Of a stretch of 64,000 bases of DNA, positions 1,058-57,700 are shown in pieces (the stretch's first letter is position 1; the number at the start of each line of letters is the position of its first letter). The stretch covers positions 269,992-333,991 of the forward strand of contig JBDRBE010000004.1 in assembly GCA_043823085.1 (NCBI GenBank). The letters are read 5' to 3'. Position numbers and translations under genes: made by a program. Origin of the DNA: Candidatus Levyibacteriota bacterium (GTDB taxonomy: Bacteria > Patescibacteriota > Microgenomatia > Levybacterales > UBA12049). Below the pieces are notes generated by a model, which saw only the letters and a program-made list of their open reading frames with translations, did not search any database and had not been told where the DNA came from.

Positions 1058-1618
1058 ATGTCCAAAACAATTTTGTCTTTTGTATTTCTTGTTGTCTTTC
1101 TGGCACTAATTATGCCGGAAGCTTCTTATGCAAAAGACGAATACGATCAAAAAATTATCAAAGTTATTTCTTCAAGCACGACCCTTAAGACCGAAGATTC
1201 TCGCACTAATCTTCTCCGACATTTTTTGAATAACTATAATTCTCCTTTAGCCGCAAATGCAGACACTTTTGTTGAAGAAGCTGATAAGAACAATCTCGAT
1301 TGGAGATTTGTTGCGGCTATTTCGGGCGTTGAATCAACCTTTGGGCTAGAAATTCCTTACAAATCCTATAATGCCTGGGGATGGGGAATTTATGGAGACA
1401 ATATGATAAGATTCAACTCGTACGATGAAGGAATTAAAGTCATTTCCAAAAGCTTGAGAGAGAAATACATTAATGCATGGGGGGCTCAAGACATTCATCA
1501 AATTGGACGATTTTACGCCGCCTCGCCAACATGGTCGCAAAGAGTAGTCTATCTTATGGAAAAAGTCGACGAGTTCGCAATAAACAATCCAAAAAATTAT
1601 CTTTCACTTTCTCTTTAA
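1058..1618 (+). CDS. secreted paralog of 267..848 (glucosaminidase-like domain protein)
   Basis: Signal-peptide-like N-terminus (LVVFLALIMPEASYA). Conserved motifs shared with 267..848. Confidence 0.55.
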   Translation: MSKTILSFVFLVVFLALIMPEASYAKDEYDQKIIKVISSSTTLKTEDSRTNLLRHFLNNYNSPLAANADTFVEEADKNNLDWRFVAAISGVESTFGLEIPYKSYNAWGWGIYGDNMIRFNSYDEGIKVISKSLREKYINAWGAQDIHQIGRFYAASPTWSQRVVYLMEKVDEFAINNPKNYLSLSL

Positions 1619-3876: not shown

Positions 3877-4653
3877 ATGCCAGAAACAGGAATCGGAGTC
3901 TTAGAAAAGCCTAAACTACCTCACCCGACCCATGAAATTGCCGCTTATTATACAGGGAAATATAACAGCGCGGAAAAATCAGATAGTCCAGAACTCGCGA
4001 GAATCAATCTTATAAAAATGGCTTTTCCTTATCTTTTGTCATTTAGACAAAGCGACAGAGTATTAGATATAGGAGCAGGAAAACAAATTTTAGAAAGGCA
4101 GCTTAGAAATTACTTTAAAAATAAGGCTGGAAGGCCACTTCAAATACCAATAGTAACTCTTGACGTAGCAAATATTAAGTATAGAAAGTTACTGGAAAAA
4201 AAACAAAAAAATATCCACCATGTATTAGCAAGGAGTGAAAAACTCCCAATTCCAGATGAAAGTATAGCCTTAGTAATTTCAAGCATGGCCTTGGATTTAA
4301 TGCCTGACGAAGCAATTGCTGAAGTTTTTCGAGTTTTGAAACCCTGCTCTCACGCTCTGATAACTCTCCATCATCCGGCGCTGATTCCAAATGATCTTGA
4401 AGAATTATTGAAGAAACAGAATGTTAGAGCAAGCGAAAGAAGAGTTTATGAAATTTGGGACTACCTTATCAAGAATCAGAAACTTTCAAGCGATATGAAT
4501 ACAATAGCAAACAGATTAAATAAATATGGCTTCAATATAGCAACTATTAATGAAGCACGCGACGAAAAAGATACATGGTGGGAGATAGATTTAATCAAAC
4601 CAGAAAAAGCTGATGAAAATAATCTGTGGGCTCAAGAGGAGTCGAACCTCTGA
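3877..4653 (+). CDS. class I SAM-dependent methyltransferase; the 3' end reads into a tRNA-Val fragment
   Basis: Motif I VLDIGAGKQ, motif post-I/II region DESIALVISSMALDL, motif III FRVLKP. The last ~9 codons are encoded by tRNA-like sequence (tgggctcaagaggagtcgaacc). Confidence 0.6.
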   Translation: MPETGIGVLEKPKLPHPTHEIAAYYTGKYNSAEKSDSPELARINLIKMAFPYLLSFRQSDRVLDIGAGKQILERQLRNYFKNKAGRPLQIPIVTLDVANIKYRKLLEKKQKNIHHVLARSEKLPIPDESIALVISSMALDLMPDEAIAEVFRVLKPCSHALITLHHPALIPNDLEELLKKQNVRASERRVYEIWDYLIKNQKLSSDMNTIANRLNKYGFNIATINEARDEKDTWWEIDLIKPEKADENNLWAQEESNL

Positions 4654-4677
4654 CCTTTACAATGTCAATGCAACGCC
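4627..4677 (-). pseudogene. tRNA-Val 3' fragment (anticodon arm through 3' end) duplicated next to the complete tRNA-Val
   Basis: Minus-strand sequence gcgttgcattgacattgtaaaggtcagaggttcgactcctcttgagccca parallels the 3' two-thirds of the adjacent tRNA-Val with several substitutions. Confidence 0.6.
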
Positions 4678-4692
4678 CCGCCTGCCTTGCTG

Positions 4693-4766
4693 TGGAGTTG
4701 ACAGGATTCGAACCTGTGACCTTTGCAATGTCAATGCAACGCTCTAACCAACTGAGCTACAACTCC
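4693..4766 (-). tRNA. tRNA-Val(GAC)
   Basis: Minus strand ggagttgtagctcagttggttagagcgttgcattGACattgcaaaggtcacaggttcgaatcctgtcaactcca. Full cloverleaf. Confidence 0.8.
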
Positions 4767-4806: not shown

Positions 4807-4869
4807 TAAAATAACATTTAAATTTTAACAGATAAGAGTAAATCGAGCAAGATTAAGAATTTAAACTTT

Positions 4870-4921
4870 ATGAAAAAGATAATTTTAGCCTCTGCCTCTC
4901 CCCGAAGAAAAGAATTGTTAA
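4870..4921 (+). repeat. 52-bp direct repeat, copy 1 (duplicate of the maf 5' end; copy 2 at 5881..5932; 3 mismatches)
   Basis: atgaaaaagataattttagcctctgcctctccccgaagaaaagaattgttaaa versus atgaaaaagataattttagcctctgcctctcctcgaagagaagaattgttaaa. Confidence 0.85.
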
Positions 4922-5748
4922 ACTCTCTGTGGTGTTGGTGGAGGAAATACACTTTCTCCGCGGGGTGAGTTTGCAACCTTTATAACCGCATTTTTATCCA
5001 GCCGAAGTGTAAGAGCATAAGAAACCTTAGGAATGCCATCCTGAGGTCTTGGCTTATATTCAACTATCGTGGCAGATACTCCTGAAAGATTAGTTGCAAG
5101 ATCACCTACCCAACCATTCTGTTCGCTACTTTCACTAACATGATGCCATTTTTGATTCCTTCTGGCAAGGTTGATTAACAAAGGTAATGTAGCTCTATCC
5201 GTAAGCAAACCAATTCTTTTAAGCACTGGTTCTAATACCGAAGGATCTGTATGATCAAGTAAATAAAGATAATCACGAGATTGAAATGAGCCTGGGGTCT
5301 TTAGTTCATCTTGAAAAACGTCTTCTACGCCTGCAGGTTTTCCTTCCAATTCTCTTTCCACCTGAATTTTTTCAACCATCTCATGTATGTCATCTGCCAT
5401 CTTACGCAAGTTTTGACTTTTTCCACATAACATCCTTCTACGCTCATCACCTTCAGGAAATCCTTCAGCAACTTCATATAAAATATTATCTAACACTTCT
5501 ACTGGACTTTCTGCCAATTTTTCTTCTACTTCTCGTCTTGCCCTTTCTCCTGCCATCCTAGCAACATCAGCAATTACCCTACGTTGTTCTCGAGGAATAT
5601 CTAGTCCTATTGTTGGGACTATAATCTGTGCTTTTGTTCGCAACTCTGCTCTACGGGCTGAATCGCCCTTGGTATGTCGATTTATACGAGATTCCACTTG
5701 TTGGAGAGATGGTCTTGATCCTACTTCAGATCTTGGCTCACCATTCAT
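4918..5748 (-). CDS. hypothetical protein (276 aa) on a GC-enriched insertion; distant paralog of 21776..22441
   Basis: Long ORF with visibly higher GC than flanks. Shares N-terminal M-N-E-P..GSR and C-terminal YAL...RGE..PPP segments with the 221-aa protein at 21776..22441. Confidence 0.6.
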   Translation of the reverse strand: MNGEPRSEVGSRPSLQQVESRINRHTKGDSARRAELRTKAQIIVPTIGLDIPREQRRVIADVARMAGERARREVEEKLAESPVEVLDNILYEVAEGFPEGDERRRMLCGKSQNLRKMADDIHEMVEKIQVERELEGKPAGVEDVFQDELKTPGSFQSRDYLYLLDHTDPSVLEPVLKRIGLLTDRATLPLLINLARRNQKWHHVSESSEQNGWVGDLATNLSGVSATIVEYKPRPQDGIPKVSYALTLRLDKNAVIKVANSPRGESVFPPPTPQRV

Positions 5749-5880
5749 ATAGTGTCTTTGATGCTAGCATAGTTTTTTTACAAATGCAAGTGGTTTTTTC
5801 TTAAATACCTGTTAAAATACAGAGAGTAAAAATTTGTTTCCCGTACACGGGAGGGGTAAGGAAAGCTTATCCCGCATTTT

Positions 5881-6462
5881 ATGAAAAAGATAATTTTAGC
5901 CTCTGCCTCTCCTCGAAGAGAAGAATTGTTAAAAAATATCGGATTGAAATTCAGCGTTGAGCCAAGCAACTTAGATGAGAACATGACGCTAAATCTAAAA
6001 CCAGCTAAACTTGCTGAATTTTTATCATTCCAAAAAGCTAAAACCGTGGCCAAAAAATATAAAAATTCGATTATTATTGCCGCCGACACAATCGTTGTAA
6101 TCGGAAATGATATTTTAGGAAAAGCGCATACTGACAAAGAGGCAAAACAGATGTTAAATAAACTGAATGGAAAATCTCACTTGGTAATTACCGGATTTAC
6201 AATTATCGATAGCAATACAAATAAAAAAGTAACCAAATCCGAAAAAACAAAAGTATTCTTTAAAAAACTCAATGCACATGAAATAGATAATTATATAGCA
6301 ACAGGCGAACCGGTAAAAAAAGGAGGGGCGGGATCGTATTGCATTCAGGGTTTTGCCTCGATGTTTATAAAAAAAATTAAAGGAGACTATTTTAATGTTG
6401 TCGGCCTGCCGATATATTCGCTTATGGAATCTCTAAAAAAATTTGGCATCAAAGTTTTGTAA
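5881..6462 (+). CDS. maf: Maf-like nucleotide pyrophosphatase (septum formation protein Maf)
   Basis: N-terminal IILASASPRR with downstream conserved Maf/Ham1 motifs; 193 aa. Confidence 0.8.
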   Translation: MKKIILASASPRREELLKNIGLKFSVEPSNLDENMTLNLKPAKLAEFLSFQKAKTVAKKYKNSIIIAADTIVVIGNDILGKAHTDKEAKQMLNKLNGKSHLVITGFTIIDSNTNKKVTKSEKTKVFFKKLNAHEIDNYIATGEPVKKGGAGSYCIQGFASMFIKKIKGDYFNVVGLPIYSLMESLKKFGIKVL

Positions 6463-8463: not shown

Positions 8464-9088
8464 AAAAAATCAAGTAAGAGTTTTTTATCGGACAAACGAG
8501 CGAATATATGCTGTAACGCTTCGTGTTTTAGATAGCGAAGGTAAGCAAATTGGGGTTCTTAGCAAATTTGACGCTTTAAAAAAAGCAAGAGATTTAAATT
8601 TAGATCTAGTCGAAGTAGCTCCGATGGCAAAACCTCCTGTTGCCAAAATAATTGATTTTAAAAAATTTTTGTATCAACAGGCAAAGAAAAAAAAGGAAGA
8701 AAAGAAAAAAAACAAAGTTTCCGAAACAAAAGAGATTAGACTCGGGCCTTTTATGAACGACCATGACCTTCAAGTCATGATTCGAAGAGGAAAAGAGTTT
8801 TTGGAAGACGGCGATAAAGTAAGATTGGTTGTCAAATTTTTTGGACGCCAAATAGCGCATCCTGAATTTGGCAAAAACGTTTTAGATAAAGTTGTAACGT
8901 CCCTATCGGAAATTTCGAAACTGGAGAGAGATCCTCATTTTGAGGGGAAACAATTGATTGCGATTCTTTCTCCTGCCCGCCATGGCTCTGCCAAAGGCGT
9001 TGCAGGCGGGCCGCAAAAAGCAAAAAAGTTCGCCAAAGAAGGCGAGGGAGATATTAAAAATGAGAAAAATAAAGAAATCAGTCAGTAA
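8447..9088 (+). CDS. infC: translation initiation factor IF-3; probable non-AUG start (TTG/ATA) overlapping the thrS end
   Basis: RVLDSEGKQIGVL...LDLVEVAPMAKPPVAKIIDFKKF matches the IF3 N-domain and linker. Confidence 0.85.
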   Translation: MIKRFRKNQVRVFYRTNERIYAVTLRVLDSEGKQIGVLSKFDALKKARDLNLDLVEVAPMAKPPVAKIIDFKKFLYQQAKKKKEEKKKNKVSETKEIRLGPFMNDHDLQVMIRRGKEFLEDGDKVRLVVKFFGRQIAHPEFGKNVLDKVVTSLSEISKLERDPHFEGKQLIAILSPARHGSAKGVAGGPQKAKKFAKEGEGDIKNEKNKEISQ

Positions 9089-9251
9089 AAGATTTAAAGT
9101 TACCAAAAACGGTAAAGTTCTTTTTTCACATCAATATAAAGGACATAAAATGGTTAGTAAGTCTTCAAGGAGAAAAAGGAGGCAAAAAGAACCGGGAATC
9201 TTGAAGGGCAAATTCGCGAAAAAGATAAAAAAGATGTTGGGCAAAAGTTAA
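9060..9251 (+). CDS. rpmI: 50S ribosomal protein L35
   Basis: MRKIKKSVSKRFKVTKNGKVLF... is L35-like. ATG is in frame inside the larger ORF 8958..9251. Confidence 0.8.
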   Translation: MRKIKKSVSKRFKVTKNGKVLFSHQYKGHKMVSKSSRRKRRQKEPGILKGKFAKKIKKMLGKS

Positions 9252-9443
9252 ATTTGTCTCGCAAAGCGAGATCCTGCTATGCGGGACAAAAAAGTAAAAC
9301 AAATGTTAGGAAAAGCCTGATGGGAAAAAGAGCAAGAAAAAATATAAATTTTAGGGAGACTCATTCCGAGAGATCGGCAACAAACTCGTACCGAAATTTT
9401 GGAAAGTCTTTAAAAGAAAAGTTTAACATAAAATTCGGAAAAT

Positions 9444-10662: not shown

Positions 10663-11721
10663 ATGGAAGAAGAGTTGATTGGTATTAAAAATGCCGCGGT
10701 TTCGCTTATTTTTGACGCCAAAGATAAGAAAACACTTGAAGAAACTAAACTTCAGTTTTTAGGAAGAAGCGGAAAATTAACTTTGGCAATTAAAGAAATT
10801 ATCAAAGTTCCCCTTATTAAAAGAGCAGAAATAGGAAGACTTGCCAACGAGGTTAAACAAGCGATAGAAGACGCGCTTGTGAATCAAGAATTAAGAATTA
10901 AGAATCTAGAATCAACGAAGCGAAAAGAAAATGTTGATAAAACTGTGCCCGGCATAAAACCAAAAATAGGCCATCTTCACCCAATGACGCAAGTTTTAAA
11001 TGAGGTTATTGATATTTTTAAAGGCATTGGATTCCAAGCTGCGGACGGGCCGGAAATAGAAACGGATTACTATAACTTCACTGCCTTAAACATGCCACCA
11101 AACGCACCGTCACGCGATACGCAAGCGACTCTTTATTTGGACACCCGAAATAGCAAAGCTGAGCCAGGACAAATTTTGTTACGAACCCAAACCTCTAATA
11201 TGCAGGTTAGGGTTATGGAGAAAACTAAACCACCAATCAGAGTAATAGTTCCGGGAAAAACATACCGCGTTGATGACGTAGATGCTTCACATAGTTTTGA
11301 ATTCTGGCAACTTGAAGGATTTATGGTGGATAAAGACGTTAGAATGACAGATCTTCTTGGAACAATTGATTATGTTCTTAAGCGCTTTATGGGAAAAAAC
11401 ACAAAAACAAAATTTGCCACAACTAATTTTTCATTCGTAGAGCCGGGAATCGACACGTATATGGAATGCACTGTATGCAAAGGGAAAGCCCGCCTGCCGA
11501 ACGGGCAGGGCTGTAGTTTTTGCAAACAAAGTGGATGGAGCGAAATAATGCCCGCGGGCATGATTCACCCAAATGTTTTAAGAGCCGCAGGTTACGATAG
11601 CCAAAAAGTTTCAGGATTTGCTTTTGCAATTGGCCTTTCAAGACTGACAACTCTCCGCTACCAAATGGACGATTTAAGATTATTAACCAATCCGGATTTG
11701 AGAATCCTTGAACAATTTTAA
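10663..11721 (+). CDS. pheS: phenylalanyl-tRNA synthetase alpha subunit (with Cys4 zinc-ribbon insertion as in Firmicutes-type PheS)
   Basis: Class II motifs; FSFVEPGIDTYMECTVCKGK...CSFCKQSGWSEIMPAGMIHPNVL; C-terminal FAFAIGLSRL. Confidence 0.9.
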   Translation: MEEELIGIKNAAVSLIFDAKDKKTLEETKLQFLGRSGKLTLAIKEIIKVPLIKRAEIGRLANEVKQAIEDALVNQELRIKNLESTKRKENVDKTVPGIKPKIGHLHPMTQVLNEVIDIFKGIGFQAADGPEIETDYYNFTALNMPPNAPSRDTQATLYLDTRNSKAEPGQILLRTQTSNMQVRVMEKTKPPIRVIVPGKTYRVDDVDASHSFEFWQLEGFMVDKDVRMTDLLGTIDYVLKRFMGKNTKTKFATTNFSFVEPGIDTYMECTVCKGKARLPNGQGCSFCKQSGWSEIMPAGMIHPNVLRAAGYDSQKVSGFAFAIGLSRLTTLRYQMDDLRLLTNPDLRILEQF

Positions 11722-28403: not shown

Positions 28404-29251
28404 TATGTTGGCGAAAATAAAACGTATTGAAAAAATTCAGACGGAAGCTTGGGATATCCTTGATAAAAAGATACCCTTCTGTTAGTCGTACCGGAAGTTC
28501 CAGTAGAATCTATTACAGTTCCTTGAGACGGAAGCGCAATATTTCCCGATACGCCTATGAAACTCGATTTGTAAAGAGGCACAACTCTGACAACCAAGCC
28601 CGACGAGATACTATTTACCTCTGCCTTATAAGCAAAAGTTTTACCAAGCAGATTTTCGCCCAGCTTATTAATATTAGTTGAAAAGTTGTTCTGTGTTGCA
28701 CGCGAGCCGCATGGATCAAATACAGAACGGAACGAGGAAGAGCTGGAAACACTATTCCCAAAAATTAAAATTACTTCAAGCGCAGCGTTGTCACAATCAC
28801 CTAGGGCATTACTTCCCCAATAAAAGGTTAGTGATGATCCGGTCCATGTCGTTGAATAATCAGGAGTATTATCCGCCTTATGAGGAACCAGCCAAACATC
28901 CGCTCCGTCATTTGCATTTACGAGATTACCGCCATTGATTAAAAAATCCGTCCCCGAAAGGGATGTAACCGTAGTCGAAAAAGATGCTTTGTTCTCGCCT
29001 GTAAAATTACCGGCAACAGAGGTATTCTCTTTAAGCGCCTTTTCTATTCCTGCTTCAGCGGCCGAAAAAGCTTTCTGTGAATTTTCTTCTTCTGTTGAAG
29101 TTCGAAGATTGGTTACAGATCTTGAAATAAGCGCCAACCCAACTGTCATTGAAACAACCATAACTAAAACAACAATTAAAAATGCCTGCCCGCTATTGCT
29201 TCGCATCAAGCGATGCGGGCGGACCTGTCCTCTTTGCCTTGCATTATCCAT
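28403..29251 (-). CDS. PilX-like minor pilin / pilus assembly protein
   Basis: N-terminal RSNSGQAFLIVVLVMVVSM hydrophobic segment. In operon with pilM. Confidence 0.5.
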   Translation of the reverse strand: MDNARQRGQVRPHRLMRSNSGQAFLIVVLVMVVSMTVGLALISRSVTNLRTSTEEENSQKAFSAAEAGIEKALKENTSVAGNFTGENKASFSTTVTSLSGTDFLINGGNLVNANDGADVWLVPHKADNTPDYSTTWTGSSLTFYWGSNALGDCDNAALEVILIFGNSVSSSSSFRSVFDPCGSRATQNNFSTNINKLGENLLGKTFAYKAEVNSISSGLVVRVVPLYKSSFIGVSGNIALPSQGTVIDSTGTSGTTNRRVSFYQGYPKLPSEFFQYVLFSPT

Positions 29252-31935: not shown

Positions 31936-32723
31936 AACAATCTCAAAAATGGTATCAACTCAATTATTTCATGACTATAAAAAAACGCAAGTAATGTTCC
32001 TAAAACTAGAAACGGGCCAAAAGGGATTGTGTCCTTGGAAAACTTTTTCCTGCCAGCTATGACAAGCGCTAGCGCCACGAAAGCGCCGATAATAAAAGCC
32101 ATATAAAGCGCGATAATAATTTTTGGAAATCCCAAAAAAAGACCGGCCAAAAAAACATATTCAACATCGCCAAAGCCCATTCCTTTTCCTTTGGTAATCA
32201 AAAAGATAAGAAGGAAAAAGAAAAAAGCGCCAAAACCTGCCAAAAGATGAATCAGGAATAAGGAATTAAGAATTAGGGATACGTAGGCAAATGTCGCAAC
32301 AACGGCGACAAGAAGAATTCGGTCGGGGATAATCCCATATTTTAAATCGATAAAAAAAATAACGATGAGAGAGGAAACTATAAAAAGATAATAAATTAAT
32401 TCAGCAAAATATTTGATATTTGATATTTGATATTTGATATTTTCATTGGGGAAAAAAAGAAAAACTAGAACAAAAGTGATTCCAGTCGTTAACTCAACAA
32501 CCGGATAATAAAATGAAATAGGGGAGTGACAATAGCGGCAACGGCCTTTAAGAATAATAAAAGAAACAAACGGAATTAAATCATACCAAGCCAATTTTTT
32601 TTTACAGGCTTCGCAATGCGACCGGCCTTTAAATACTGACTCACCGCGGGGAAGTCTATCGATTACAACATTAAGAAAACTTCCAATACCAAGACCTAAA
32701 AAAAAGAGCAAAAATATAACCAC
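31932..32723 (-). CDS. pilD: prepilin peptidase (A24 family)
   Basis: CxxC...CxxC zinc motif (GRSHCEACKK...CRYCHSPIS), multiple TM segments, acidic catalytic residues. Contains a heptanucleotide repeat. Confidence 0.85.
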   Translation of the reverse strand: MVIFLLFFLGLGIGSFLNVVIDRLPRGESVFKGRSHCEACKKKLAWYDLIPFVSFIILKGRCRYCHSPISFYYPVVELTTGITFVLVFLFFPNENIKYQISNIKYFAELIYYLFIVSSLIVIFFIDLKYGIIPDRILLVAVVATFAYVSLILNSLFLIHLLAGFGAFFFFLLIFLITKGKGMGFGDVEYVFLAGLFLGFPKIIIALYMAFIIGAFVALALVIAGRKKFSKDTIPFGPFLVLGTLLAFFYSHEIIELIPFLRLL

Positions 32724-34523: not shown

Positions 34524-35591
34524 CTATCCAATCAGCCTTATCAATTCTTCAGGATGAACAGAGTAACCCGTTGCAATTTCCAAACTTACCATTCCTGAGA
34601 GAACAAGACTTGCCAGAGAGGCTTCCAAACTAATCATTCCAACATCTTGCGAGGTCTGAATAATCGAATCCAAAAGATGCGACTTTCCATCTCTTATATT
34701 TGTTGCAACGGCCGGCGTGCCAATTAAAACTTCTGCGGCCGGAATTCTTCCTCCGGCAATTTGCGGAAGGAGTCTTTGCGAAACAATACCTTTTAGAGTT
34801 GCTGACAGCTGAATTCTTATCTGAGGCTGCTGATGAGAAGGAAACGAATCTACAATTCTATCCACGCTTTGCGAGGCTGAATTAGTATGCAATGTCGAAA
34901 AAACCAAATGTCCGGTTTCGGCGACGGTAATTGCCGCGGCAATGGTTTCGGGATCACGCATTTCACCAACTAAAACAACATCCGGATCTTCTCTTAAAGC
35001 CGAACGAAGAGACATTGCCCAAGAATGTGTATCCGATCCCAACTCTCTTTGAGAAATAATGCTTTTGCTGTTTGGATAAACATATTCAATTGGATCCTCA
35101 ATTGTTAAAATATGGCAAGCTCTATTGATATTTATTTCATTTATAATTGCCGCTAAAGTTGTCGATTTTCCATGACCGGTCGGACCGCAAAGCAAAACAA
35201 AGCCTTGTTTCAAGGTAGTAAACGAATGAAGGATTTTGGGAAGATGAAGTTCCTCAATCGTTTTTATATTTGGCGGCAAAAATCTAAAAGCCGCGGACAA
35301 ATATCCTCTTTGATAGTAAAGATTTGAACGAAACCGTCCCGCGTCGCCATAAATACCTCCGCCAAATCCAAGCGAAAAATCCAATTCTTTATTGGTGACT
35401 AAAAGCTCTTTTTGTTCCGGCGTTAAAAGAGAAAAAATCATTTCCTCAACGTCTTCGCGTGTCAAGACGTTATAACCGGATAAACTAGAAAGTGCTCCAT
35501 CAACGCGAATAGAAGGCGGAATGCCCGGTAAAAGATGCAAATCAGAAGCTCTATTCTTAATAGTCAAACTTAATAATTCCTGAATATTCAT
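34524..35591 (-). CDS. pilT: twitching motility ATPase PilT
   Basis: Walker A GPTGHGKSTTLAA, Asp box, His box; about 355 aa, typical PilT size. Confidence 0.85.
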   Translation of the reverse strand: MNIQELLSLTIKNRASDLHLLPGIPPSIRVDGALSSLSGYNVLTREDVEEMIFSLLTPEQKELLVTNKELDFSLGFGGGIYGDAGRFRSNLYYQRGYLSAAFRFLPPNIKTIEELHLPKILHSFTTLKQGFVLLCGPTGHGKSTTLAAIINEININRACHILTIEDPIEYVYPNSKSIISQRELGSDTHSWAMSLRSALREDPDVVLVGEMRDPETIAAAITVAETGHLVFSTLHTNSASQSVDRIVDSFPSHQQPQIRIQLSATLKGIVSQRLLPQIAGGRIPAAEVLIGTPAVATNIRDGKSHLLDSIIQTSQDVGMISLEASLASLVLSGMVSLEIATGYSVHPEELIRLIG

Positions 35592-35592
35592 A

Positions 35593-37374
35593 CTATTCTT
35601 GCGCTACTCTCAAAACTTCTTCAACCGATGTTACGCCTTCAATAACTTTAAAATATCCGTCTTGTTTCATTGTAATCATCCCCTCCACGATAGCCTGTTT
35701 TTCAATTGTCGCGCTGTCCGAATTTTCCAAAAGAAGATGAGCAATTTTATCCGAAACAATCATTACCTCAAAGATTCCAACTCTTCCTAAATACCCTGAA
35801 TTTGAGCATGCAGGACATCCTTTCCCCTTATAAAATTTAAATTCTCCCTGCGTTTTTGGTAAAAGGTTTCCCAATACATTTTTAATCTCATTTATTATTG
35901 GAGACGGGGGAGAATAAGACTCTTTGCAATTAGAACAAATTTTTCGAACAATTCTTTGTCCAACCAGTGCATTCATTGTGGAAGCAAGCAAAAAAGGTTC
36001 CGCTCCTAAATCCAAAAGTCGAGGAAGCACCCCCGCGGCATTTGAAGTATGCAACGTTGAAAAAACCAAATGTCCGGTTAAAGCCGCCTGCAAAGCCAAA
36101 TCGTTTGTTTCTTCATCTCTTATTTCTCCAACCAAAATTATGTTTGGATCCTGACGAAGAAAAGACCTCAATCCTGTGGCAAAAGTAAGCCCGACAGCTG
36201 GATTAATCTGCACTTGATTAATTCCTGCTATTTGATACTCAACCGGATCTTCCAAAGACATAATATTAACCCTTGCGGTGTTTAGTTTTGAAAGAATGGA
36301 ATAAAGCGTTGTTGTTTTTCCCGAACCTGTCGGACCGCAAACAATAATTATTCCATGCGGACGTAAAATTGCAGTTTCTAAATTCTTCAAAGTCATACCT
36401 GAAAGGCCAAGTTCGGGAAGCGTTGGTATGCCTCCTGATTTTCGCAAAAGTCTCATCACAATTTTTTCTCCATCAACGGTTGGCAGGACAGAAATACGCA
36501 AATCAACTTCTTCATTTCCTATTTTAAAATTAAAACGTCCGTCTTGAGGAGAACGGTGTTCATCGATTTTCATTTCCGATAAAATTTTAATTCTGGAAAC
36601 GACCGCTTCCTGAACGGTTTTTGGAAGACTCAACCTGTCATATAAAATTCCGTCAATTCTATAGCGAACCCTGACTCTATCACTTTGAGGCTCAATATGA
36701 ACATCCGAAGCTCGACTTGTAACAGCATATTCTAAAATAGTTGTGACAATTTTAGCAATTGGCGCCTCTTTAATAATTTGCGATATTTGATTGCTATCGA
36801 CAACTCGGGTTTTAGGCATTTCCTCAGTTTCTCTTAGAGCTTGTCCGACTTCTGTTACTAATTCTTGACGATATTGTTCTTCAATAACTTTTGATATTTC
36901 CGAAGGAGTGGCTGCAAACGATTTGACGTCAAGCCCTGTTTTTTGACGAATAAAGGAAATCGCTTCAAGATCTGCAGGATTACCCATGGCAACAGAAAGA
37001 GTTTTATTTTTCTCGTCGTATAAAAAAGGGATTACTTTAAAACGCTCGGCAACTGCCCGCGGAATTAAATTTATGGTTTGGGGAGAAAATGAAGTAGTTG
37101 CAAGCGATACGAAAGGGACTCCTAAAAGTTTTGCACGGGCTTCTGTAAATTTATCTTCGGGAACAAGATTTAAAGCTTCTATAATTTCTCCAATAGGTTT
37201 TCCCTCCGTCGCGCTTTTAACCTTAGCCTCTCTGTATTGGCTCTGTGTTATAAGGCGATCGGCAAATAAAATATCCGCTATATTTTTTGGCGTCTGACCG
37301 AAATCCTGCGGTATGCTAGCTTTTCCACTTAAATCCAAACCCGATGTTGCTTGATTGTAAAAATCATTGGGCAT
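35593..37374 (-). CDS. pilB: type IV pilus assembly ATPase PilB (GspE family)
   Basis: GPTGSGKTTTLY Walker A; C-terminal tetracysteine CSNC...CPAC; N-terminal GspE-N domain. Confidence 0.9.
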   Translation of the reverse strand: MPNDFYNQATSGLDLSGKASIPQDFGQTPKNIADILFADRLITQSQYREAKVKSATEGKPIGEIIEALNLVPEDKFTEARAKLLGVPFVSLATTSFSPQTINLIPRAVAERFKVIPFLYDEKNKTLSVAMGNPADLEAISFIRQKTGLDVKSFAATPSEISKVIEEQYRQELVTEVGQALRETEEMPKTRVVDSNQISQIIKEAPIAKIVTTILEYAVTSRASDVHIEPQSDRVRVRYRIDGILYDRLSLPKTVQEAVVSRIKILSEMKIDEHRSPQDGRFNFKIGNEEVDLRISVLPTVDGEKIVMRLLRKSGGIPTLPELGLSGMTLKNLETAILRPHGIIIVCGPTGSGKTTTLYSILSKLNTARVNIMSLEDPVEYQIAGINQVQINPAVGLTFATGLRSFLRQDPNIILVGEIRDEETNDLALQAALTGHLVFSTLHTSNAAGVLPRLLDLGAEPFLLASTMNALVGQRIVRKICSNCKESYSPPSPIINEIKNVLGNLLPKTQGEFKFYKGKGCPACSNSGYLGRVGIFEVMIVSDKIAHLLLENSDSATIEKQAIVEGMITMKQDGYFKVIEGVTSVEEVLRVAQE

Positions 37375-37414: not shown

Positions 37415-37460
37415 TCGCAAAGAGTTTCTCGGTTCTTTGTCATTCTGAACTTGTTTCAGA
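37415..37460 (+). promoter_or_regulatory. inverted repeat attctgaa-cttgt-ttcagaat in the divergent pilB/holB intergenic region
   Basis: 8-bp perfect stems read directly. Candidate operator or hairpin. Confidence 0.35.
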
Positions 37461-37484
37461 ATCTCATTAAATACTTTAAAGTCT

Positions 37485-40468: not shown

Positions 40469-40488
40469 CCTCACATCGATTACATATT

Positions 40489-41304
40489 ACCAAAGGTGGC
40501 ATACCTAATCCACCTCTAAGGTGGATTTCTATTGACACCTCTGGTTTTCGACACTAGAATAAATTATGCCCGGAAGAAATACTATTCTTGCGAACGGGGA
40601 AACATATCATATTTTTAATAGAGGAGTTGCCTCTCAACCAACATTTATAGACAAAAAAGATTATCAGAGAGTTATGGATAGTTTCTTCTATTACCAAAAC
40701 ATTACTCCTCCAATAAAGTATTCAAAATTTTTAATGATTTCCGCTAAAGAGAGAGACAATATTATAAATAATTTAAGAAAAAAGAAATTTTTCCATGCTG
40801 ATATCATTGCTTATTGTTTTATGCCTACTCATTTCCATTTATTGTTAAGACAAAATGAAGAAAATGGAATCTCAAAATTTGTAGGAAACTTCACCAACAG
40901 TTATACAAGATACTTTAATACAAAACGGGAAAGAAAAGGACCAATCTTTGAAGGCAAATTCGGTTCTGTAAGAATTGAAACAAGCGAACAACTACTTCAT
41001 GTTTCGAGATACATTCACCTTAATCCTTACTCGTCTTATCTTGTTAAAACAACTCAGGAGCTCGAGTCTTTTACCTATTCATCATTTAATGAATATATCG
41101 CAGGTAATAGTAATCTTTGTAATAAAGACTTCATTCTGGAAAATTTTAAGACCGCTAAGGAATATAAAAAATTCGTTTTTGATCAAGCAGACTACCAAAA
41201 AAAACTAAACAACATTAAACACCTTCTCTTGGAGAATTAGCGGAAATACCAAAGGTGGCATACCTAATCCACCTCTAAGGTGGATTTCTATTGACACCTC
41301 TGGT
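40489..41304 (+). mobile_element. IS200/IS605-like element: HUH (Y1) transposase gene flanked by identical 57-bp hairpin-containing ends in direct orientation
   Basis: accaaaggtggcatacctaatccacctctaaggtggatttctattgacacctctggt occurs at 40489..40545 and 41248..41304. Each copy holds the ccacc-tctaa-ggtgg hairpin. Confidence 0.7.
40566..41240 (+). CDS. IS200-like / REP-associated tyrosine (HUH Y1) transposase
   Basis: HUH motif PTHFHLLL; catalytic Tyr region LHVSRYIHLNP. Confidence 0.7.
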   Translation: MPGRNTILANGETYHIFNRGVASQPTFIDKKDYQRVMDSFFYYQNITPPIKYSKFLMISAKERDNIINNLRKKKFFHADIIAYCFMPTHFHLLLRQNEENGISKFVGNFTNSYTRYFNTKRERKGPIFEGKFGSVRIETSEQLLHVSRYIHLNPYSSYLVKTTQELESFTYSSFNEYIAGNSNLCNKDFILENFKTAKEYKKFVFDQADYQKKLNNIKHLLLEN

Positions 41305-47818: not shown

Positions 47819-50287
47819 ATGACTAATATCGGTAAAATTCAGCCCGTTGAAATCACAACGGAAATGAAGAAAAGTTATCTTGATTACGCCATGAGCGTAA
47901 TTGTTGCCCGTGCTTTACCTGATGTTAAAGACGGTCTAAAACCGGTCCACAGACGCATCCTCTACGCCATGCACGAAATGAATCTAACCCACAGCGCTAA
48001 ATACGCAAAAAGTGCAAAAATTGTCGGAGAAGTCATGGGGAAATATCATCCTCACGGAGATATGCCAATTTATGACGCTCTTGTCCGGCTTGCACAGAAT
48101 TTTTCCATGCGTTATCCGCTTATTGACGGTCAGGGTAACTTTGGTTCCATGGACGGCGATCCGCCGGCAGCAATGAGATACACAGAGGCCAGACTTGCCG
48201 CAATAACTTCCGAGATGCTTTACGATTTAGACAAAGAGACTGTCTTGTATACGCAAAATTTTGACGCGACTCTTAAAGAACCTCTATATCTGCCTGCAAA
48301 ACTGCCGAATTTACTTTTGATGGGATCTGAAGGCATTGCTGTTGGCATGGCAACCAAAATTCCTCCGCATAATCTTGGAGAAGTTATTGACGCGATTAAT
48401 TTTATGATCGAAAAAACAACTATTTCCAAAGATGAAAAACATACCTTTAACACATCGGGCATGACCATTGACGAACTTTTAGAATTTATTAAAGGCCCGG
48501 ATTTTCCAACATATGGCGTAATTTACGATATATCAGAAATAAAAAATGTATATTTAACAGGACGGGGACGAATAATTATTCGCGGAAAAGCGGATATTGA
48601 AGATATTGGCAATGGAAAATCCGCGATTATAATTACCGAACTTCCGTATCAAGTTAACAAAGCACTGCTTGTGGCGCGCATTGCCGATTTGGCAAAAGAG
48701 AAAAAGGTTGAAGGAATTTCAGATCTCCGCGACGAATCGGACAGACATGGAATAAGAGTTGTTGTCGAATTAAAAAGAGACACTACGCCAAAAAAAGTTT
48801 TGAATAATTTGTTTAAACACACCGCTCTTCAAACAATTTTTCCGGCAAACATTGTTGCTTTGGTAGACGGAACACCCCAAACATTAAACCTTAAAACAAT
48901 TTTGGAAGAATATTTAAAACATCGTTTTTCTGTGATTTTCAAACGGTCTGAATTTGAACTCGTCCAGTCAAAAGCAAGACTGCATATTTTAAAAGGGTTA
49001 AAAATTGCGGTTGATAATATTGACGCCGTTATAAAAACCATCCGCGCCTCAAAAACACAAGAAGAGGCAAAGCAAAATTTAATGGAAAAATTCAAGTTAT
49101 CGGATCTTCAGGCAACTGCAATTTTGGACATGCAACTCCGCCGTCTTGCAGCCCTTGAAAGACAAAAAATTGAAGACGAGTACGAAATGGTTAAAGAAAC
49201 AATTGAATATCTTGAGGATTTGCTTGCCAATCCGCCAAAAATTTTAAAAGTAATAAAAGGCGAGCTTTCAAATCTCAGAGAGAAATATCATGATGAGCGA
49301 AGAACCAGAGTTTTTAAAAGTAAAGTCGGCGAGTTTTCCGAAGAAGACCTCATTCCAAATGAACCAACAGTTATAACACTGACAACAACCGGCTATATTA
49401 AAAGACAATCGTTGAATAGTTTTAGAACCCAGCATCGTGGCGGCAAAGGCGTAAGAGGAATGACTACAAAAGATGAAGATGGAATTATGCATATTCAATA
49501 TGCCCAAACCCATGATAATATTCTTTTCTTTACCAACAAAGGAAAAGTTTATCAGCTTCGCGCTTTTGAAATTGCCGAAAGCTCCAGAACCAGTAAAGGC
49601 AGTGCCATTATAAATTTATTGAGCATAGAAGTTGGTGAAAAAGTCGAATCTTTTGTAGTTTATGGAAAAAACCAAGGAAAAAAATATGTCTTTTTAACGA
49701 CAAGAAAGGGTACGGTCAAAAAATCAGCTCTTTCGGAATTTGAAAATATCAGAAGAAGCGGAATTGCGTCCATTAAACTTGATAAAAACGACGAACTTGT
49801 TTGGTCCGATTTAACAAGCGGAGACAGTGATGTTTTAATCGTTACAAAAAACGGCAAGGCCATAAGATTTTCGGAAAAAACGGCAAGGCCATTGGGACGA
49901 AACACCATGGGCGTTCGAGGAATAAAAATTACAGGAGACGACGAAGTAATCGGAATGGATGTTATCGAAAAAGGACAAAACCCTGATCTTTTGACCATTA
50001 TGGAAAGAGGTCTTGGTAAAAAAACCCCGGTTAATCAATTTCACAAGCAAAGCAGAGGAGGACAGGGAGTAAAAGTAGCAAAAGTCACACAAAAAACCGG
50101 AAAAGTCGCTTTTGCCCAAGTAATTCCCCAAATTTGCGAAGAAATTATTGTCACATCCAAACGCGGACAAATTGTTAAACTTGAACTCTCGTCTATTCCA
50201 AAGCTTTCGCGGGCAACACAAGGCGTAATTTTAATGAGATTTTCAAATCAGGCAGACAGCGTAACCTCGGGAACTTGTCTTGGTTAA
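47819..50287 (+). CDS. gyrA: DNA gyrase subunit A
   Basis: Catalytic Tyr region ([10 protein letters not shown]), QRDR-like region, C-terminal beta-pinwheel repeats. Confidence 0.95.
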
Positions 50288-50295
50288 TAAAAAAC

Positions 50296-51336
50296 ATGAA
50301 AATTGATGGAAAAGAAATTGCTAAAAATATCCTCGAAGATCTCAAAATTAGAGTTGAAAAATTAAAAGAGAAAAATATAATCCCAGGACTTTCGATAATT
50401 TTAGTTGGAGATAACCCGGCTTCCAAAGCTTATGTTCGGCAAAAAGAATTAAAAGCAGAAAAAATAGGAGCAAATGCTGTCGTTTTGAATTTAGATTCTA
50501 AAACTTCAAATTCTGAATTACTAAAAACAATTGAGCAATGGAACAATGATAGCAATATTCATGGAATGATTGTTCAGCGACCTCTTCCTTCGCATATTGA
50601 TGAGAAAAAAATTGATCTTGCAACCGACCCCAAAAAAGATATTGACTCCTTCCATCCAAAGTCTCCTTATCCAATGCCTCTTGCCGCAGCAGTTTTGAAA
50701 ATTTTAGAGGAAATTTATTTATTTACAAATGGCGCGGGAAGACACAAAATTTTCGCAAAGCGAGGTACAACGCATCATAACAAAGATTTTTATCGCGGGG
50801 AGTCTTTTCATGAGGCGATGTCTTCACTAGAGTCGCCGAAGGTGACCGTATCCCGAGACGAGCCACTTGACGGCGAGTCGGAGGGACGCTTGTGTTTGAA
50901 GACTCGCCAAACTGAAAAGACGACCTCAGCGATAAACCCTATCAACTTTAAAGAGTGGTTAAAATCTAAAAGAATTGTCGTGATTGGTAAAGGGAAAACA
51001 GGCGGGGGCCCAACTATTCAAATGCTAAAAAAAATGGGGGTTGAACTTCAAATTATCGACAGCAAAACCCAAAATCCAAAAGATTTCACAAAATCTGCAG
51101 ACATAATTATTTCAACTGTCGGAAAACCAAATATTTTGAAGCCGGAAATGATTAAAAAGGGAATAATTTTAATAAGTGTGGGCCAGCATAAAGGAATTGA
51201 CGGAAAATTCCATGGAGATTATGAGGAAAATGAAATTAAAAATATCGCCTCTTTTTACACCCCAACTCCCGGGGGCATCGGCCCTGTCAACGTCGCCATG
51301 CTTCTTGAAAACCTCGTCACCGCCGCCCAAAATTGA
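50296..51336 (+). CDS. folD: methylenetetrahydrofolate dehydrogenase/cyclohydrolase with an in-frame insertion of about 76 aa and a recoded 3' end
   Basis: N-terminal MKIDGKEIA...YVRQKELK; C-terminal TPTPGGIGPVNVAMLLENL. GC-rich insert between ILEE and IVVIGKG. Confidence 0.8.
   Translation: MKIDGKEIAKNILEDLKIRVEKLKEKNIIPGLSIILVGDNPASKAYVRQKELKAEKIGANAVVLNLDSKTSNSELLKTIEQWNNDSNIHGMIVQRPLPSHIDEKKIDLATDPKKDIDSFHPKSPYPMPLAAAVLKILEEIYLFTNGAGRHKIFAKRGTTHHNKDFYRGESFHEAMSSLESPKVTVSRDEPLDGESEGRLCLKTRQTEKTTSAINPINFKEWLKSKRIVVIGKGKTGGGPTIQMLKKMGVELQIIDSKTQNPKDFTKSADIIISTVGKPNILKPEMIKKGIILISVGQHKGIDGKFHGDYEENEIKNIASFYTPTPGGIGPVNVAMLLENLVTAAQN
50712..50940 (+). repeat. GC-rich in-frame insertion in folD sharing motifs with the purH/carB palindromic elements
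   Basis: Contains tcatgaggcg...cctcagcg termini, atcccgagac core, and ggcgagtc/gactcgcc inverted repeats. About 50% GC against about 33% in flanks. Confidence 0.5.
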
Positions 51337-54633: not shown

Positions 54634-54717
54634 GTCATGCCGAAATCTTTAGGTGTCGTCCTGAATTTATTTCAGGACCTCGTTTTGCTCGAGATGCCGA
54701 AACAAGTTCGGCATGAC
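54634..54717 (+). repeat. 84-bp nested palindromic element (MITE/REP-like) between carA and carB
   Basis: Outer arms gtcatgccgaa / ttcggcatgac (11 bp perfect). Inner hairpin gtcctgaa-ttta-tttcaggac. Confidence 0.7.
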
Positions 54718-54731
54718 AAGGAGAAAATAAT

Positions 54732-57700
54732 ATGAAAATTAAAAAAGTACTAATTTTGGGCTCTGGAGCGTTGAAAATTGGCGAGGCGGGGGAGTTTGAC
54801 TACTCCGGTTCTCAAGCCATTAAAGCCCTTAAAGAGGAAGGGATAAAAACAGTTTTAGTTAATCCAAACATTGCCACTATTCAAACCTCAAAATTTTTAG
54901 CAGACACTGTTTACTTTCTTCCCATTGATGATTTTTTTGTCGAAAAAATAATTAAAAAAGAAAAGCCAGACGGGATCCTTCTCTCTTTTGGCGGCCAAAC
55001 AGCTCTCAATTGCGGAATAAATCTCTACAAAAAAGGGGTTCTTAAAAAGAATAATGTACAGATACTTGGCACTCCGATCTCGGCAATTCTTTTAACCGAA
55101 GATCGCAATAAATTCGCCAAACATCTTTTAAAAATAGGGGTTCCGATTCCAAAAAGCCAGACAGCAAATTCAGCAAAACAGGTAAAAATAATCGCTAAAG
55201 AAATTGGTTTTCCGGTGATGGTAAGAGCCGGTTTTACTCTAGGAGGACAAGGATCGGGAATTGCACAAAACGAGAAGGAATTAAATAAAATAGCGGAAGC
55301 GGCTTTTTCTTTTGCCCCGCAGGTTTTAATTGAAAAATATTTACATCACTACAAAGAAATTGAATACGAAGTTGTCCGCGACAAATTTGATAATTGTATT
55401 ACAGTCTGCAATATGGAAAACATGGACCCTATGGGAATTCACACCGGCGAATCTATTGTGGTTGCTCCTAGCCAAACTTTAAATAATTTTGAATATCAGG
55501 CTTTGCGAAACGCAGCCATAAAAATTGTCCGAAGTCTAAAAATCGTCGGCGAATGCAATGTCCAATTTGCATTAAACCCAAACCCTAATCGCAATGTCAT
55601 CCTGAGGAGCAAAGCGACGAAGGATCTCACCGACGTTCGAGATTCTTCGACTTCGCCTCAGAATGACAATAATGATATTGAATACTACGTTATCGAGGTC
55701 AACGCCCGGCTTTCCCGAAGTTCAGCTCTGGCATCAAAAGCAACCGGATATCCGCTTGCCTATGTCGCAGCAAAATTGGCACTCGAAAAAAATCTTACTT
55801 CTATCAAAAATAAAGTTACCAGCATTACCCAATCCTGTTTTGAACCGGCTCTTGATTATATTGTTGTCAAAATTCCCCGCTGGGATATAGAAAAATTCAA
55901 AGGCGCAGAAGAACAAATTGGAAGCAGTATGAAATCAGTCGGAGAAGTGATGGGAATTGGAAGGACTTTTGAAGAAACGTATCAAAAAGCCATCCGCATG
56001 CTTGATTTAGATTTTGAGGGCGCGGTAAATGAAAAAATAATAAAAAATGAAAAGTCATTAACTTATCAATTAAAAACACCAACCCCAAAACGCATTTTCG
56101 CAATTGCCAAAGCGATTTCGCAAAACTTTTCCATTAAAAGAATCAATCAATTAACTGGAATTGACCCGTGGTTTTTATATCATATTAAAAGCATCGTTGA
56201 TCAAGAAAAAAACCTCCGGAATAAAAAAATAAATGATTTATCCAAAGAAAAATTATTAGAATTAAAGAGATTAGGATTTTCCGACAAACGCATCGGGCAG
56301 CTTCTGGGAGTCTTGGGACTTGAAATTAGAAAAATTAGGAAGAAATGGAAAATTTTGCCAAACGTTTTTCAAATTGACACTCTGGCAGGCGAATTTCCCG
56401 CTAAAACCAATTATCTTTACACAACATACGGTAATAATCATGATGATGTTAAACCGGCCGGAAAAAGCGGAGTGATAGTTTTGGGCTCAGGCCCTTACAG
56501 AATTGGTTCGTCTGTTGAATTTGACTGGACAAGTGTTAATACTGTTTTGGCGCTAAAAGAACATAAAAAACAATCGATAATAATAAACTGCAATCCGGAA
56601 ACCGTTTCCACAGACTATGATATTTCCGACCGGCTTTATTTTGAAGAATTATCATTTGAAAGAATCGCAGATATTTATGAATTTGAAAATCCGTTGGGCG
56701 TTATTATTTCTGTGGGCGGACAAACGCCAAACAACAGAGCAAAATCGCTAAAAAGTTATGGCTTTCATATTCTTGGGACAGACCCCGCAAATATTGACAG
56801 GGCAGAGGATAGGAATAAATTTTCCAAACTTCTTGACCATCTTAAAATTTCACAGCCTCCCTGGAACAAATTTTCTAACATTAAAGATGCTTTAAGTTTT
56901 TGCGAAAAAGTAGGCTACCCTGTATTAATTCGTCCTTCTTATGTACTATCTGGAACAAGTATGAATATCTGTTATGACCAAAAAGAATTTCTTCATTATC
57001 TTAAAAAAGCTTCTTACATTTCCAAAGAATATCCCGTAACAGTTTCCAAATTTATTAAAGATGCAAAGGAAATTGAGTATGACGCGGTCGCCCAAAAAGG
57101 AAAAATCAAGACCTCGGTGATTTCCGAACACATAGAAAATGCCGGAATTCATTCGGGAGACGCAACAATTGTACTCCCGCCGCAAAAAATTTATCTTGAA
57201 ACGCAAAGAAAAATCCATAACGTTGCCAATAAATTAGCAGAGTCTCTTGTTATTTCCGGCCCTTTCAACATACAATTTTTAGCCAAAGATAATGATATTT
57301 CTGTAATCGAAATTAATCTTCGCTCATCGCGGACTTTTCCTTTTATTTCCAAGGTTACCGGCGTTGATTTTATCAAACTCTCTGTAGATTCTTTTTTTGG
57401 CAAACATATTCCGAAGATTTTCACCAATTCATTAAAATTTACAGCAGTAAAAGTTGCCCAGTTTTCTTTTGCAAGACTTACCGGCGCAGATCCGATAATT
57501 CGTGTCGAAATGGCATCAACCGGCGAGGTGGCTTGTTTTGGAGAAAATGTTGAGGAGGCGTTTTTAAAAGGAGAACTTGCTGTTGGTGGAAAAATTCCAA
57601 AAATCGGTGTCTTCCTAAGTTTAGGGGGAGAAGAAAATAAAATTAAATTTTTAGAAAACTTTCCTCATTTGAAATTTTTGAATCTTCCGATTTTTGCAAC

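Follow-up and report, generated by a model that had tools for sequence, protein, structure and literature searches.

How a palindrome can come to lie in frame within a housekeeping gene, and what carries it there, is the question raised by a 64-kb stretch of DNA (64,000 nucleotides, here called the window) on a 431-kb contig from a metagenome-assembled genome of Candidatus Levybacteria, a member of the Candidate Phyla Radiation (CPR)/Patescibacteria. The GC content of the window is ~36%, and two of its genes, carB and purH, each contain a short GC-rich pair of inverted arms which keeps the reading frame of its host. It is probable that these inserts are orphan, non-autonomous pairs of inverted hairpin modules from a mobile family which extends across phyla and whose full form carries a gene for a GIY-YIG protein.

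Palindromic inserts in carB and purH

The carB gene (54732-58007, + strand; identified by its open reading frame (ORF) and by homology) encodes the large subunit of carbamoyl-phosphate synthase, a protein of 1091 amino acids, and contains an in-frame arm pair of 72 nt at 55596-55667 (+ strand; CarB residues ~289-312). The pair consists of a left arm (GTCATCCTGAGGAGCAAAGCGACGAAGGATCTC, 55596-55628), a 10-nt spacer (ACCGACGTTC, 55629-55638) and a right arm (GAGATTCTTCGACTTCGCCTCAGAATGAC, 55639-55667). The pair is richer in GC (0.53) than its flanks (0.38), its in-frame translation is VILRSKATKDLTDVRDSSTSPQND, and the peptide across the junction region reads ...DSSTSPQNDNNDIEYYVIEVNAR. The left arm is a longer variant with the form GAG-GAGCAAAGCGAC-GAAGG, and an arm closely similar to it (29/33 nt, read by eye) was found upstream of a GIY-YIG gene at another locus (L129). 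The purH gene (17239-18831, + strand) encodes AICAR transformylase/IMP cyclohydrolase (530 amino acids from the ATG at 17239), and its in-frame arm pair of 56 nt (57 nt including the preceding T) is located at 17720-17775 (+ strand). Here the left arm (ATCATGCTGAGCGAAGCGAAGCATC, 17720-17744) and the right arm (GAGACTCTTCGCTTGCGGCTCAGAATGAC, 17747-17775) are separated by a 2-nt spacer (CC), the first base of the left arm is mutated from G to A (ATCAT, a 1-nt change from the GTCAT flank), the GC content is 0.55 compared to 0.34 in the flanks and the in-frame translation is (Y)HAERSEASRDSSLAAQND.

The original prediction, made from the sequence alone, described both as palindromic elements inserted in frame and encoding a shared peptide. 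The first part was borne out by the coordinates, the sequence, the GC content, the frames and the folding, the whole elements folding as single-stranded DNA (ssDNA) hairpins with z-scores of -2.75 to -3.9 against shuffled sequences. The shared peptide held for the right arm, where the frame is the same and RDSS..QND is common to both proteins, and failed for the left arms, which are read in different frames to give VIL(R/N).. in CarB (VILR.. in the window) and (C)H(A/S/P)ERSE.. in PurH (HAERSE.. in the window).

Comparison with orthologues, the check that had been proposed, found many CarB and PurH proteins without the segment, and both inserts are true insertions. The alignment of human CPS1 covers CarB residues 2-284 and 316-1077 with a single residue between them, the insert being absent from CPS1, and an empty site (NP-xP-Kxxx-IEYYVIEVNA) was found in many of the 120 closest CarB orthologues, as in L005 ('aatccaaaagatactcttgaa'); orthologues with empty sites were numerous at 65-77% identity. 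A short empty loop is likewise present at the insert site of most PurH orthologues, and the loops of others hold inserts of type 1, inserts of type 2 (both described below) or remnants ('SAQND', 'RHPERSD'). As a separate observation, the bacterial CarB of the window matched human mitochondrial CPS1 better (1111 bits) than it matched E. coli CarB (812 bits).

Both proteins were modelled with AlphaFold2 using orthologue alignments, and the models place both inserts at low-confidence, structurally permissive loops, as had been anticipated. In CarB, residues 286-314 form the longest segment with a pLDDT (predicted local distance difference test) below 50 and lie between strands 273-281 and 318-324, a predicted beta-hairpin turn which precedes the conserved IEYYVIEVNAR strand of the N-terminal ATP-grasp domain. 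In PurH (mean pLDDT 91.5) the insert is the sole internal dip in confidence (68-69 at residues ~161-180) and is predicted to extend two flanking helices as a helix-turn-helix loop; ~10 of the residues at the insert site are missing from solved PurH structures.

The CarB beta-turn also accepts other sequences. At the site equivalent to window positions 55575-55682, at least six unrelated insert families were seen across Microgenomates lineages, and the three which were read as DNA are all imperfect palindromes (L209, 3847-3987; L210, 3844-3966; L211, 3844-3990). The inserts of L210 and L211 have common termini (GGGGTGACrCGG...CCGAGGCAGGACCCC) with cores of GAACGAAGTGAA or GAGCGAAGCGA, and that of L209 is of an AT-rich AAATTCCAAATTC type.

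The repeat family and its distribution

The arms of both inserts belong to one family, built from a module in which T-GTCAY is followed by a hairpin and then by ATCT. Each arm is 26-33 nt in length, and its stem-loop is either imperfect, around GCGAAGC, or a simple stem of 8-9 bp; type 1 arms are built around GAGCGAAGCGAAG and type 2 arms are clean mini-hairpins of the form GTCATGCTGAA-nnnn-TTTCAGCATCTC. The bases of the flanks (T|GTCAY...RTGAC|A) appear to belong to the element, which has terminal inverted repeats; a consistent target-site duplication was not found at the copies compared, and no parent insertion sequence was seen for the arm pairs.

Further copies, as the original prediction expected of a single family, were found both in the window and in relatives. 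A type-2 composite occupies the carA-carB spacer at 54634-54717 (intergenic, no strand assigned; folding z-score -6.5), with termini GTCATGCCGAA...TTCGGCATGAC, a mini-hairpin module in its inner part (54655-54679) and another module at its right (54693-54717), and a type-2 element is present in the same spacer in a relative (L004). A solo intergenic module (GTCATTCTGAACTTGTTTCAGAATCTC) lies at 37439-37465 (+ strand; dG -5.3, z-score -3.2), and its layout of GTCAT, stem, loop, stem and ATC is that of the NTS repeats of Neisseria; a single type-1 arm can also be folded in an NTS-like manner (ATTCT-GA-GC-GAA-GC-GA-AGAAT). The window holds ~8 modules in total. The terminal 11-mer CTCAGAATGAC occurs 4 times in it when up to one mismatch is allowed, compared to 0.74 expected, and none of 100 shuffled sequences reached 4.

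In the related Levybacteria loci (L001-L008), filled carB sites with the form aat|GTCATyCTGAAC GAAGTGAAGGATCT ... AGATTCTTCG..CTCAGAATGAC|a were seen in L001, L003, L004, L007 and L008, and only a remnant ('gtccttcagaatgac') remains at the site in L006. A fuzzy search revealed more copies in spacers, downstream of genes and inside carA of L003. In the carB insert of the closest relative (L002, 10865-10960) the left arm is broken, immediately after GTCATC, by an extra hairpin of ~32 nt (TCTACGAGCCTGAAGACTCTCAAAGTCGTAGG; read by eye), which by our own reading would be the insertion of one element within another.

The genic carB copies are 54, 63, 72 or 78 nt long, always a multiple of three. The perfect consensus is 52 nt, which is not a multiple of three, and it gives a TGA stop codon in the CarB frame; in genic copies the right arm is extended by 1-2 nt or more, and the extension both brings back the frame and eliminates the stop. 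Selection for frame is visible in the genic copies. It should be noted that the Levybacteria loci were chosen through carB and are biased for the intragenic fraction, so that no enrichment within genes is claimed; in other phyla at most ~5-10% of paired elements are located in long open frames.

If the inserts arose from chimeric joins induced by repeats during assembly or binning, the in-frame arrangement would be only apparent. Short dispersed repeats do often break or mis-join metagenome assemblies, and many of the contigs with GIY-YIG genes are very short; the frame is, however, kept within highly conserved flanks, insert length is always a multiple of three and the same site is filled in independent assemblies from JGI, NCBI, ENA and Logan, so that an artefact of this kind is barely credible.

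The original prediction placed the family in a reduced, low-GC genome, and it extends well beyond that. The exact 26-mer GTCATYCTGARCGAAGYGAAGRATCT was found in at least 120 genome stretches, the hosts among the matches listed comprising Acidobacteriota, Nitrospirota, Bacteroidota, Chloroflexota, Firmicutes, Gemmatimonadota, Planctomycetota, Verrucomicrobiota, Omnitrophota, Proteobacteria, Saccharibacteria and Parcubacteria. In 120 loci the general form is T|GTCAYCTGAGCGAAGCGAAGRATCT, a variable core and AGATYCTTCG(..)CTCAGRATGAC|A. The exact 26-nt arm was also present on 51 predicted viral contigs from IMG/VR (L212-L262), which may be a vehicle between phyla, or may be prophage or misclassified host DNA. 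At gathering thresholds Rfam gave no family for the window or for 14 arm-bearing loci drawn from different phyla, and a permissive Rfam scan of the carB element returned only noise. Literature searches with DNA 11-mers and with translated signatures (e.g. [quoted passage not shown]

Spread of the arms and the GIY-YIG gene

The arms do not evolve as the genes around them do. At four-fold degenerate sites of carB the carriers are only 25-39% identical to one another (saturated), while the left arms of L001, L003, L004, L007 and L008 are identical at 21-25 of 26 positions and the 12-nt right terminus at 10-12 of 12 in all pairs; the codons immediately flanking the carB element differ between carriers. 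Since CarB and PurH read this DNA in different frames, selection on the peptide cannot explain the conservation of the arms. Inserts of family A are scattered on the CarB tree, with at least 10 state changes by parsimony among 13 carriers (the tree being a rough neighbour-joining tree at ~70% identity). The data agree with insertion that recurred, or with conversion of resident copies that is still going on, and not with a single old insertion drifting with its host.

A variable loop of CarB and PurH which is ancestral, vertically inherited, palindromic by chance and not mobile would account for the presence of related inserts at exactly the same codon in several orthologues, and the loops are indeed intrinsically variable in length. 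Such an explanation is nevertheless effectively refuted: a single 26-nt sequence is shared by two unrelated genes, by spacers and across dozens of phyla, sites without an insert are frequent, near-identical arms lie beside synonymous sites which are saturated, and the left arm is in different frames in the two proteins.

A candidate for the agent of spread is the GIY-YIG gene, which encodes a protein of 90-104 amino acids (PF01541; ~70-75% identical across phyla). In a Saccharibacteria locus (L009) one cassette is made up of a left arm, a 93-amino-acid GIY-YIG ORF and a right arm, with an empty arm pair directly after it, and a similar cassette was found in L014. Across 80 metagenomic loci, an arm was present within 120 nt upstream of the GIY-YIG gene in 54/79 cases (68%) and within 120 nt downstream in 68/78 (87%), compared to 24/742 control windows (3%) at least 500 nt away; arms were present on both sides of the gene in 48/77.

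A comparable NTS-ssnA-NTS architecture has been published (Chenal et al., Nat Commun 2025; PMC11893778), in which the Ssn nuclease binds its hairpin in ssDNA form only and makes its cut a few nucleotides upstream, and in which SRM repeats lie near 71% of ssn homologues and on both sides in 42%. In the two systems alike, the hairpin has a conserved (H)GTCAY on its 5' side and ATC(Y) on its 3' side, and the NTS (cGTCAT-TCCCGCG-mav-GCGGGAA-TCyrg) has the same layout as the module at 37439 (tGTCAT-TCTGAAC-ttg-TTTCAGAA-TCtc). The 5' HGTCWY and 3' RNCY flanks are present (as TGTCAT or TGTCAC, and ATCT) at 37439, at 54693-54717 (- strand), at 55639-55667 (- strand) and at the 120 loci. In both systems a small single-domain GIY-YIG gene has repeats to either side of it (here for the repeat family as a whole, not in the window), most copies are dispersed orphans and the distribution is broad across phyla. 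In contrast to SRM and NTS, the dominant arm here has a GCGAAGC core with G.A mismatches and not a clean GC stem, the copies are mainly tail-to-tail inverted pairs, and some lie in frame within genes of CPR bacteria, the published study making no mention of copies in coding sequence or of CPR bacteria. By analogy, the arm family appears to work like the SRM/Ssn system and is probably a divergent branch of it, as distinct from a demonstrated member.

The full form of the element would be a single-domain GIY-YIG nuclease gene of ~93 amino acids between two arms. The nuclease, if it behaves as Ssn does, would recognise the module as an ssDNA hairpin and would nick in the conserved 5' GTCAY flank, where the element has its boundary; with the arms inverted, one strand is proposed to be cut at each boundary. 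Nuclease-dependent transposition, homing or gene conversion could then spread and homogenise arm pairs in trans, and purifying selection would spare only genic copies with a length divisible by three, without stops and in permissive loops, to be translated as floppy loop extensions. From the parallel with Ssn we infer that the GIY-YIG protein may be an Ssn-type ssDNA nuclease which moves or converts the arms; the inserts would be translated and neutral. A stronger version is put forward only as a possibility, and one that we would not bet on: that GTCAY arm pairs are an active cross-phylum family driven by an Ssn-type GIY-YIG protein, which in CPR bacteria repeatedly and independently enter or convert the same loops of essential enzymes, their arms kept identical by homing or conversion and not by descent, with coding palindromes like those of Rickettsia as one general outcome.

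Several results weigh against mobility driven by this nuclease. The pattern on the rough neighbour-joining CarB tree could result from many losses in place of many gains, selection alone could account for recurrence at one codon, and the orthologues compared gave no target-site duplication and no clean empty/filled junction from near-identical strains. The predicted energy of a single type-1 arm is unremarkable (-1.9 kcal/mol, z-score ~0); d(GCGAAGC) is an unusually stable DNA mini-hairpin which is under-rated by nearest-neighbour models. When the arms are taken as the starting point the gene is rare, being found within 700 nt at 2 of the 120 loci listed and within 8 kb at ~4, and any mobilisation must therefore act in trans. 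All-versus-all clustering of ORFs within 700 nt of these 120 arm loci gave no recurrent neighbour other than the 2 GIY-YIG ORFs and artefacts of translated arms; the association of arm and nuclease emerged only when the GIY-YIG gene was the starting point. A GIY-YIG homologue was not found in the window or in L001-L008. A tblastn match at window positions 9257-9379 (E 0.024) was rejected as noise, as the family consensus gave none at E<1 and no intact GIY-YIG ORF was found in the three forward frames. Searched against PDB, the GIY-YIG clade, a candidate member of cd10448/Ssn, gave only distant UPF0213 proteins, and the match to NCBIfam was a weak, sub-threshold one to GIY-YIG intron endonucleases. 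Finally, the published SRM pattern (HGTCWYN(0-2)YYVSBRHN(0-5)WNVSBRGN(0-2)RNCYNB; PMC11893778) required 3-6 substitutions to match the arms, or did not match within the 6 allowed, compared to 0 for NTS; its sole exact match in the window (1093-1125) is unrelated.

Two other systems could use or move such arms. The arms may have been domesticated as a host signal, through which an Ssn-type nuclease restricts or shapes the recombination of incoming ssDNA, genic copies marking or protecting essential loci. NTS and SsnA are known to lower transformation by NTS-containing DNA, with NTS clustered around particular genes (PMC11893778), and a signal would suit both the conservation of the arms at DNA level, far beyond neutral expectation, and the several copies in the car operon across relatives (carA-carB spacer, carA and carB). 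This account is nonetheless unlikely, given that no nuclease gene was seen in the window or L001-L008, as reported above, and that many orthologues do well without any copy. The same loops, moreover, hold unrelated palindromic families and truncated remnants ('gtccttcagaatgac' in L006; 'SAQND' and 'RHPERSD' in PurH), and because of these opportunistic insertion followed by decay fits better than a maintained signal.

Movement by a Y1 tyrosine transposase of the RAYT type (REP-associated tyrosine transposase, REP denoting repetitive extragenic palindromes), which would make the arms REP/REPIN-like repeats, is less probable again. Proteins resembling Y1_Tnp or RAYT are encoded in the window (40566-41240) and in two relatives, and enzymes of this class act on ssDNA hairpins without target duplication, in keeping with the lack of obvious duplication here. 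The Y1 genes are, however, flanked by unrelated hairpins of their own (CTTCCCACTTGnCAAGTGGGAAG in L002, TTCCACACCCGATGTGGAA in L004 and, for the gene of the window, a perfect direct repeat of 58 nt) and were rejected as the partner; GTCAY arms instead flank GIY-YIG genes, at 68-87% occupancy, and the window ORF scored 46 bits against NCBIfam REP_Tyr_transpos, where the curated cut-off is 80. Of the movers considered, the GIY-YIG protein is the preferred candidate.

Other repeats of the window and other known systems

The window holds several further repeats. The Y1 ORF at 40566-41240 (PF01797, 37 bits) lies between two direct repeats of 58 nt (40488-40545 and 41247-41304), 100% identical to each other, which contain a CCACCTCTAAGGTGG hairpin. 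A MgsA/RarA-like AAA+ gene (ORF 58050-59276) has an in-frame insert of 10 amino acids derived from a GCCCGCC...GGCGGGGC hairpin (59171-59240); L005 has a related insert ('GPASPAGRQGG') at this site, and nothing is inserted there in L002. A second palindromic family is here inserted in frame, in a third housekeeping gene. The FolD protein (50275-51336) has 353 amino acids compared to 279-307 in relatives, with an insert at roughly 50700-50920 which places ~73 extra residues in a variable loop between its two Pfam domains and overlaps a GC-rich segment (50824-50910); among relatives, the site holds no insert in L001, ~10 residues in L002 and ~30 in L004. GC-rich hairpins at 8959-9024, 11466-11528, 29181-29249, 9250-9289 and 24251-24290 are situated inside or at the ends of ORFs, among them the C-terminal extension of IF3, the core domain of PheS, an unassigned 282-amino-acid ORF and the N-terminus of RNase III; those at 9250-9289 and 24251-24290 are 80% reverse-complementary (GTCTCGCAAAGCGAGATCC...). 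So the genome of the window appears to tolerate many loop inserts derived from hairpin repeats.

AT-rich repeats of the ATTCATAATTCTTAATTCCTGATTC type are located at 924-956, 10880-10912 and 32248-32280, and similar ones flank a PF05635 gene in the carA-carB spacer of L003 (9590-10000). PF05635 genes recur near carB or xerC in L001, L003 and L209; those beside carB in L001 and L003 (23S rRNA IVP/bAvd-like) were considered as possible cargo of the arms and rejected, their flanks being a different, ATTCGTAATTC-type repeat. Three further duplications were noted: an 85% identical copy of part of tRNA-Val (4624-4676 compared to 4690-4742), just upstream of the called tRNA and itself uncalled by ARAGORN or Rfam; a 56-nt stretch, 96% identical and including an ATG start, repeated ~1 kb apart (4867-4922 and 5878-5933); and a 34-nt stretch, 94% identical, common to two adjacent genes (34884-34917 and 36046-36079).

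Among known systems, the carB and purH elements behave like the Rickettsia palindromic elements (RPEs; Ogata et al. 2000, 2002, reviewed in PMC10969869), as the original prediction had proposed: palindromes lie in frame in unrelated housekeeping genes (here carB, purH and carA of L003), add a peptide at a position compatible with the fold and contain no transposase. They differ from RPEs, with which they were compared by description only, in that they measure 54-78 nt against ~100-150 bp, about half the size, in that the family spans phyla and not one genus, and in that a candidate partner enzyme is present and the same loops are hit repeatedly across lineages, by different families too. The accompanying view that in-frame palindromes are known only from Rickettsia has to be given up, as ERIC, BOX, QMITE1 of Coxiella and the Anabaena MITEs are bacterial MITEs which fuse in frame with ORFs (PMC10969869), and coding palindromes occur in the mitochondrial genes of Nematomorpha (PMC6649704). 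Bacterial MITEs resemble the present elements as small, non-autonomous inverted repeats which are sometimes intragenic and translated; the elements here, for which no DDE-transposase parent was seen and no target-site duplication is evident, are much shorter and are highly conserved in sequence across phyla. In the nematomorph genes, too, inverted repeats lie within protein-coding sequence with both arms translated, but those palindromes are long (up to 284 bp), perfect and located in an animal organelle, and do not form a dispersed, nuclease-linked family.

The REP/REPIN-RAYT system likewise consists of short hairpin repeats, often in inverted pairs, which flank the gene of their presumed mover, and shares an ssDNA hairpin substrate (a presumed one for the arms) and, for the arms, an apparent lack of target duplication. 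It differs in that the gene associated with the arms is GIY-YIG and not Y1, the Y1 genes present having other hairpins. REPs are extragenic by definition, whereas 2 of the 3 paired copies in the window are intragenic. The carB and purH case is best filed as an SRM-like, GIY-YIG-associated, cross-phylum hairpin repeat whose orphan arm pairs are presumably translated in loops in the manner of RPEs.

For the organism and its relatives, specific loops that accommodate inserts of 18-70 residues can be named in CarB, PurH and other housekeeping proteins, and such inserts are a source of noise in the annotation and alignment of CPR proteomes, where they give rise to spurious 'lineage-specific insertions' and to short hypothetical ORFs (..HSERSEES.., ..AQND..). 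As for the search pattern published for SRMs, it overlooks a family of repeats which is very abundant. Coding palindromes have until now been mainly a curiosity of Rickettsia, with no known mobilising enzyme; the same phenomenon is now found in a CPR bacterium, Rickettsia-style coding palindromes exist well outside Rickettsia, and with a candidate partner enzyme at hand the link to GIY-YIG genes offers a concrete and testable candidate for how coding palindromes spread.

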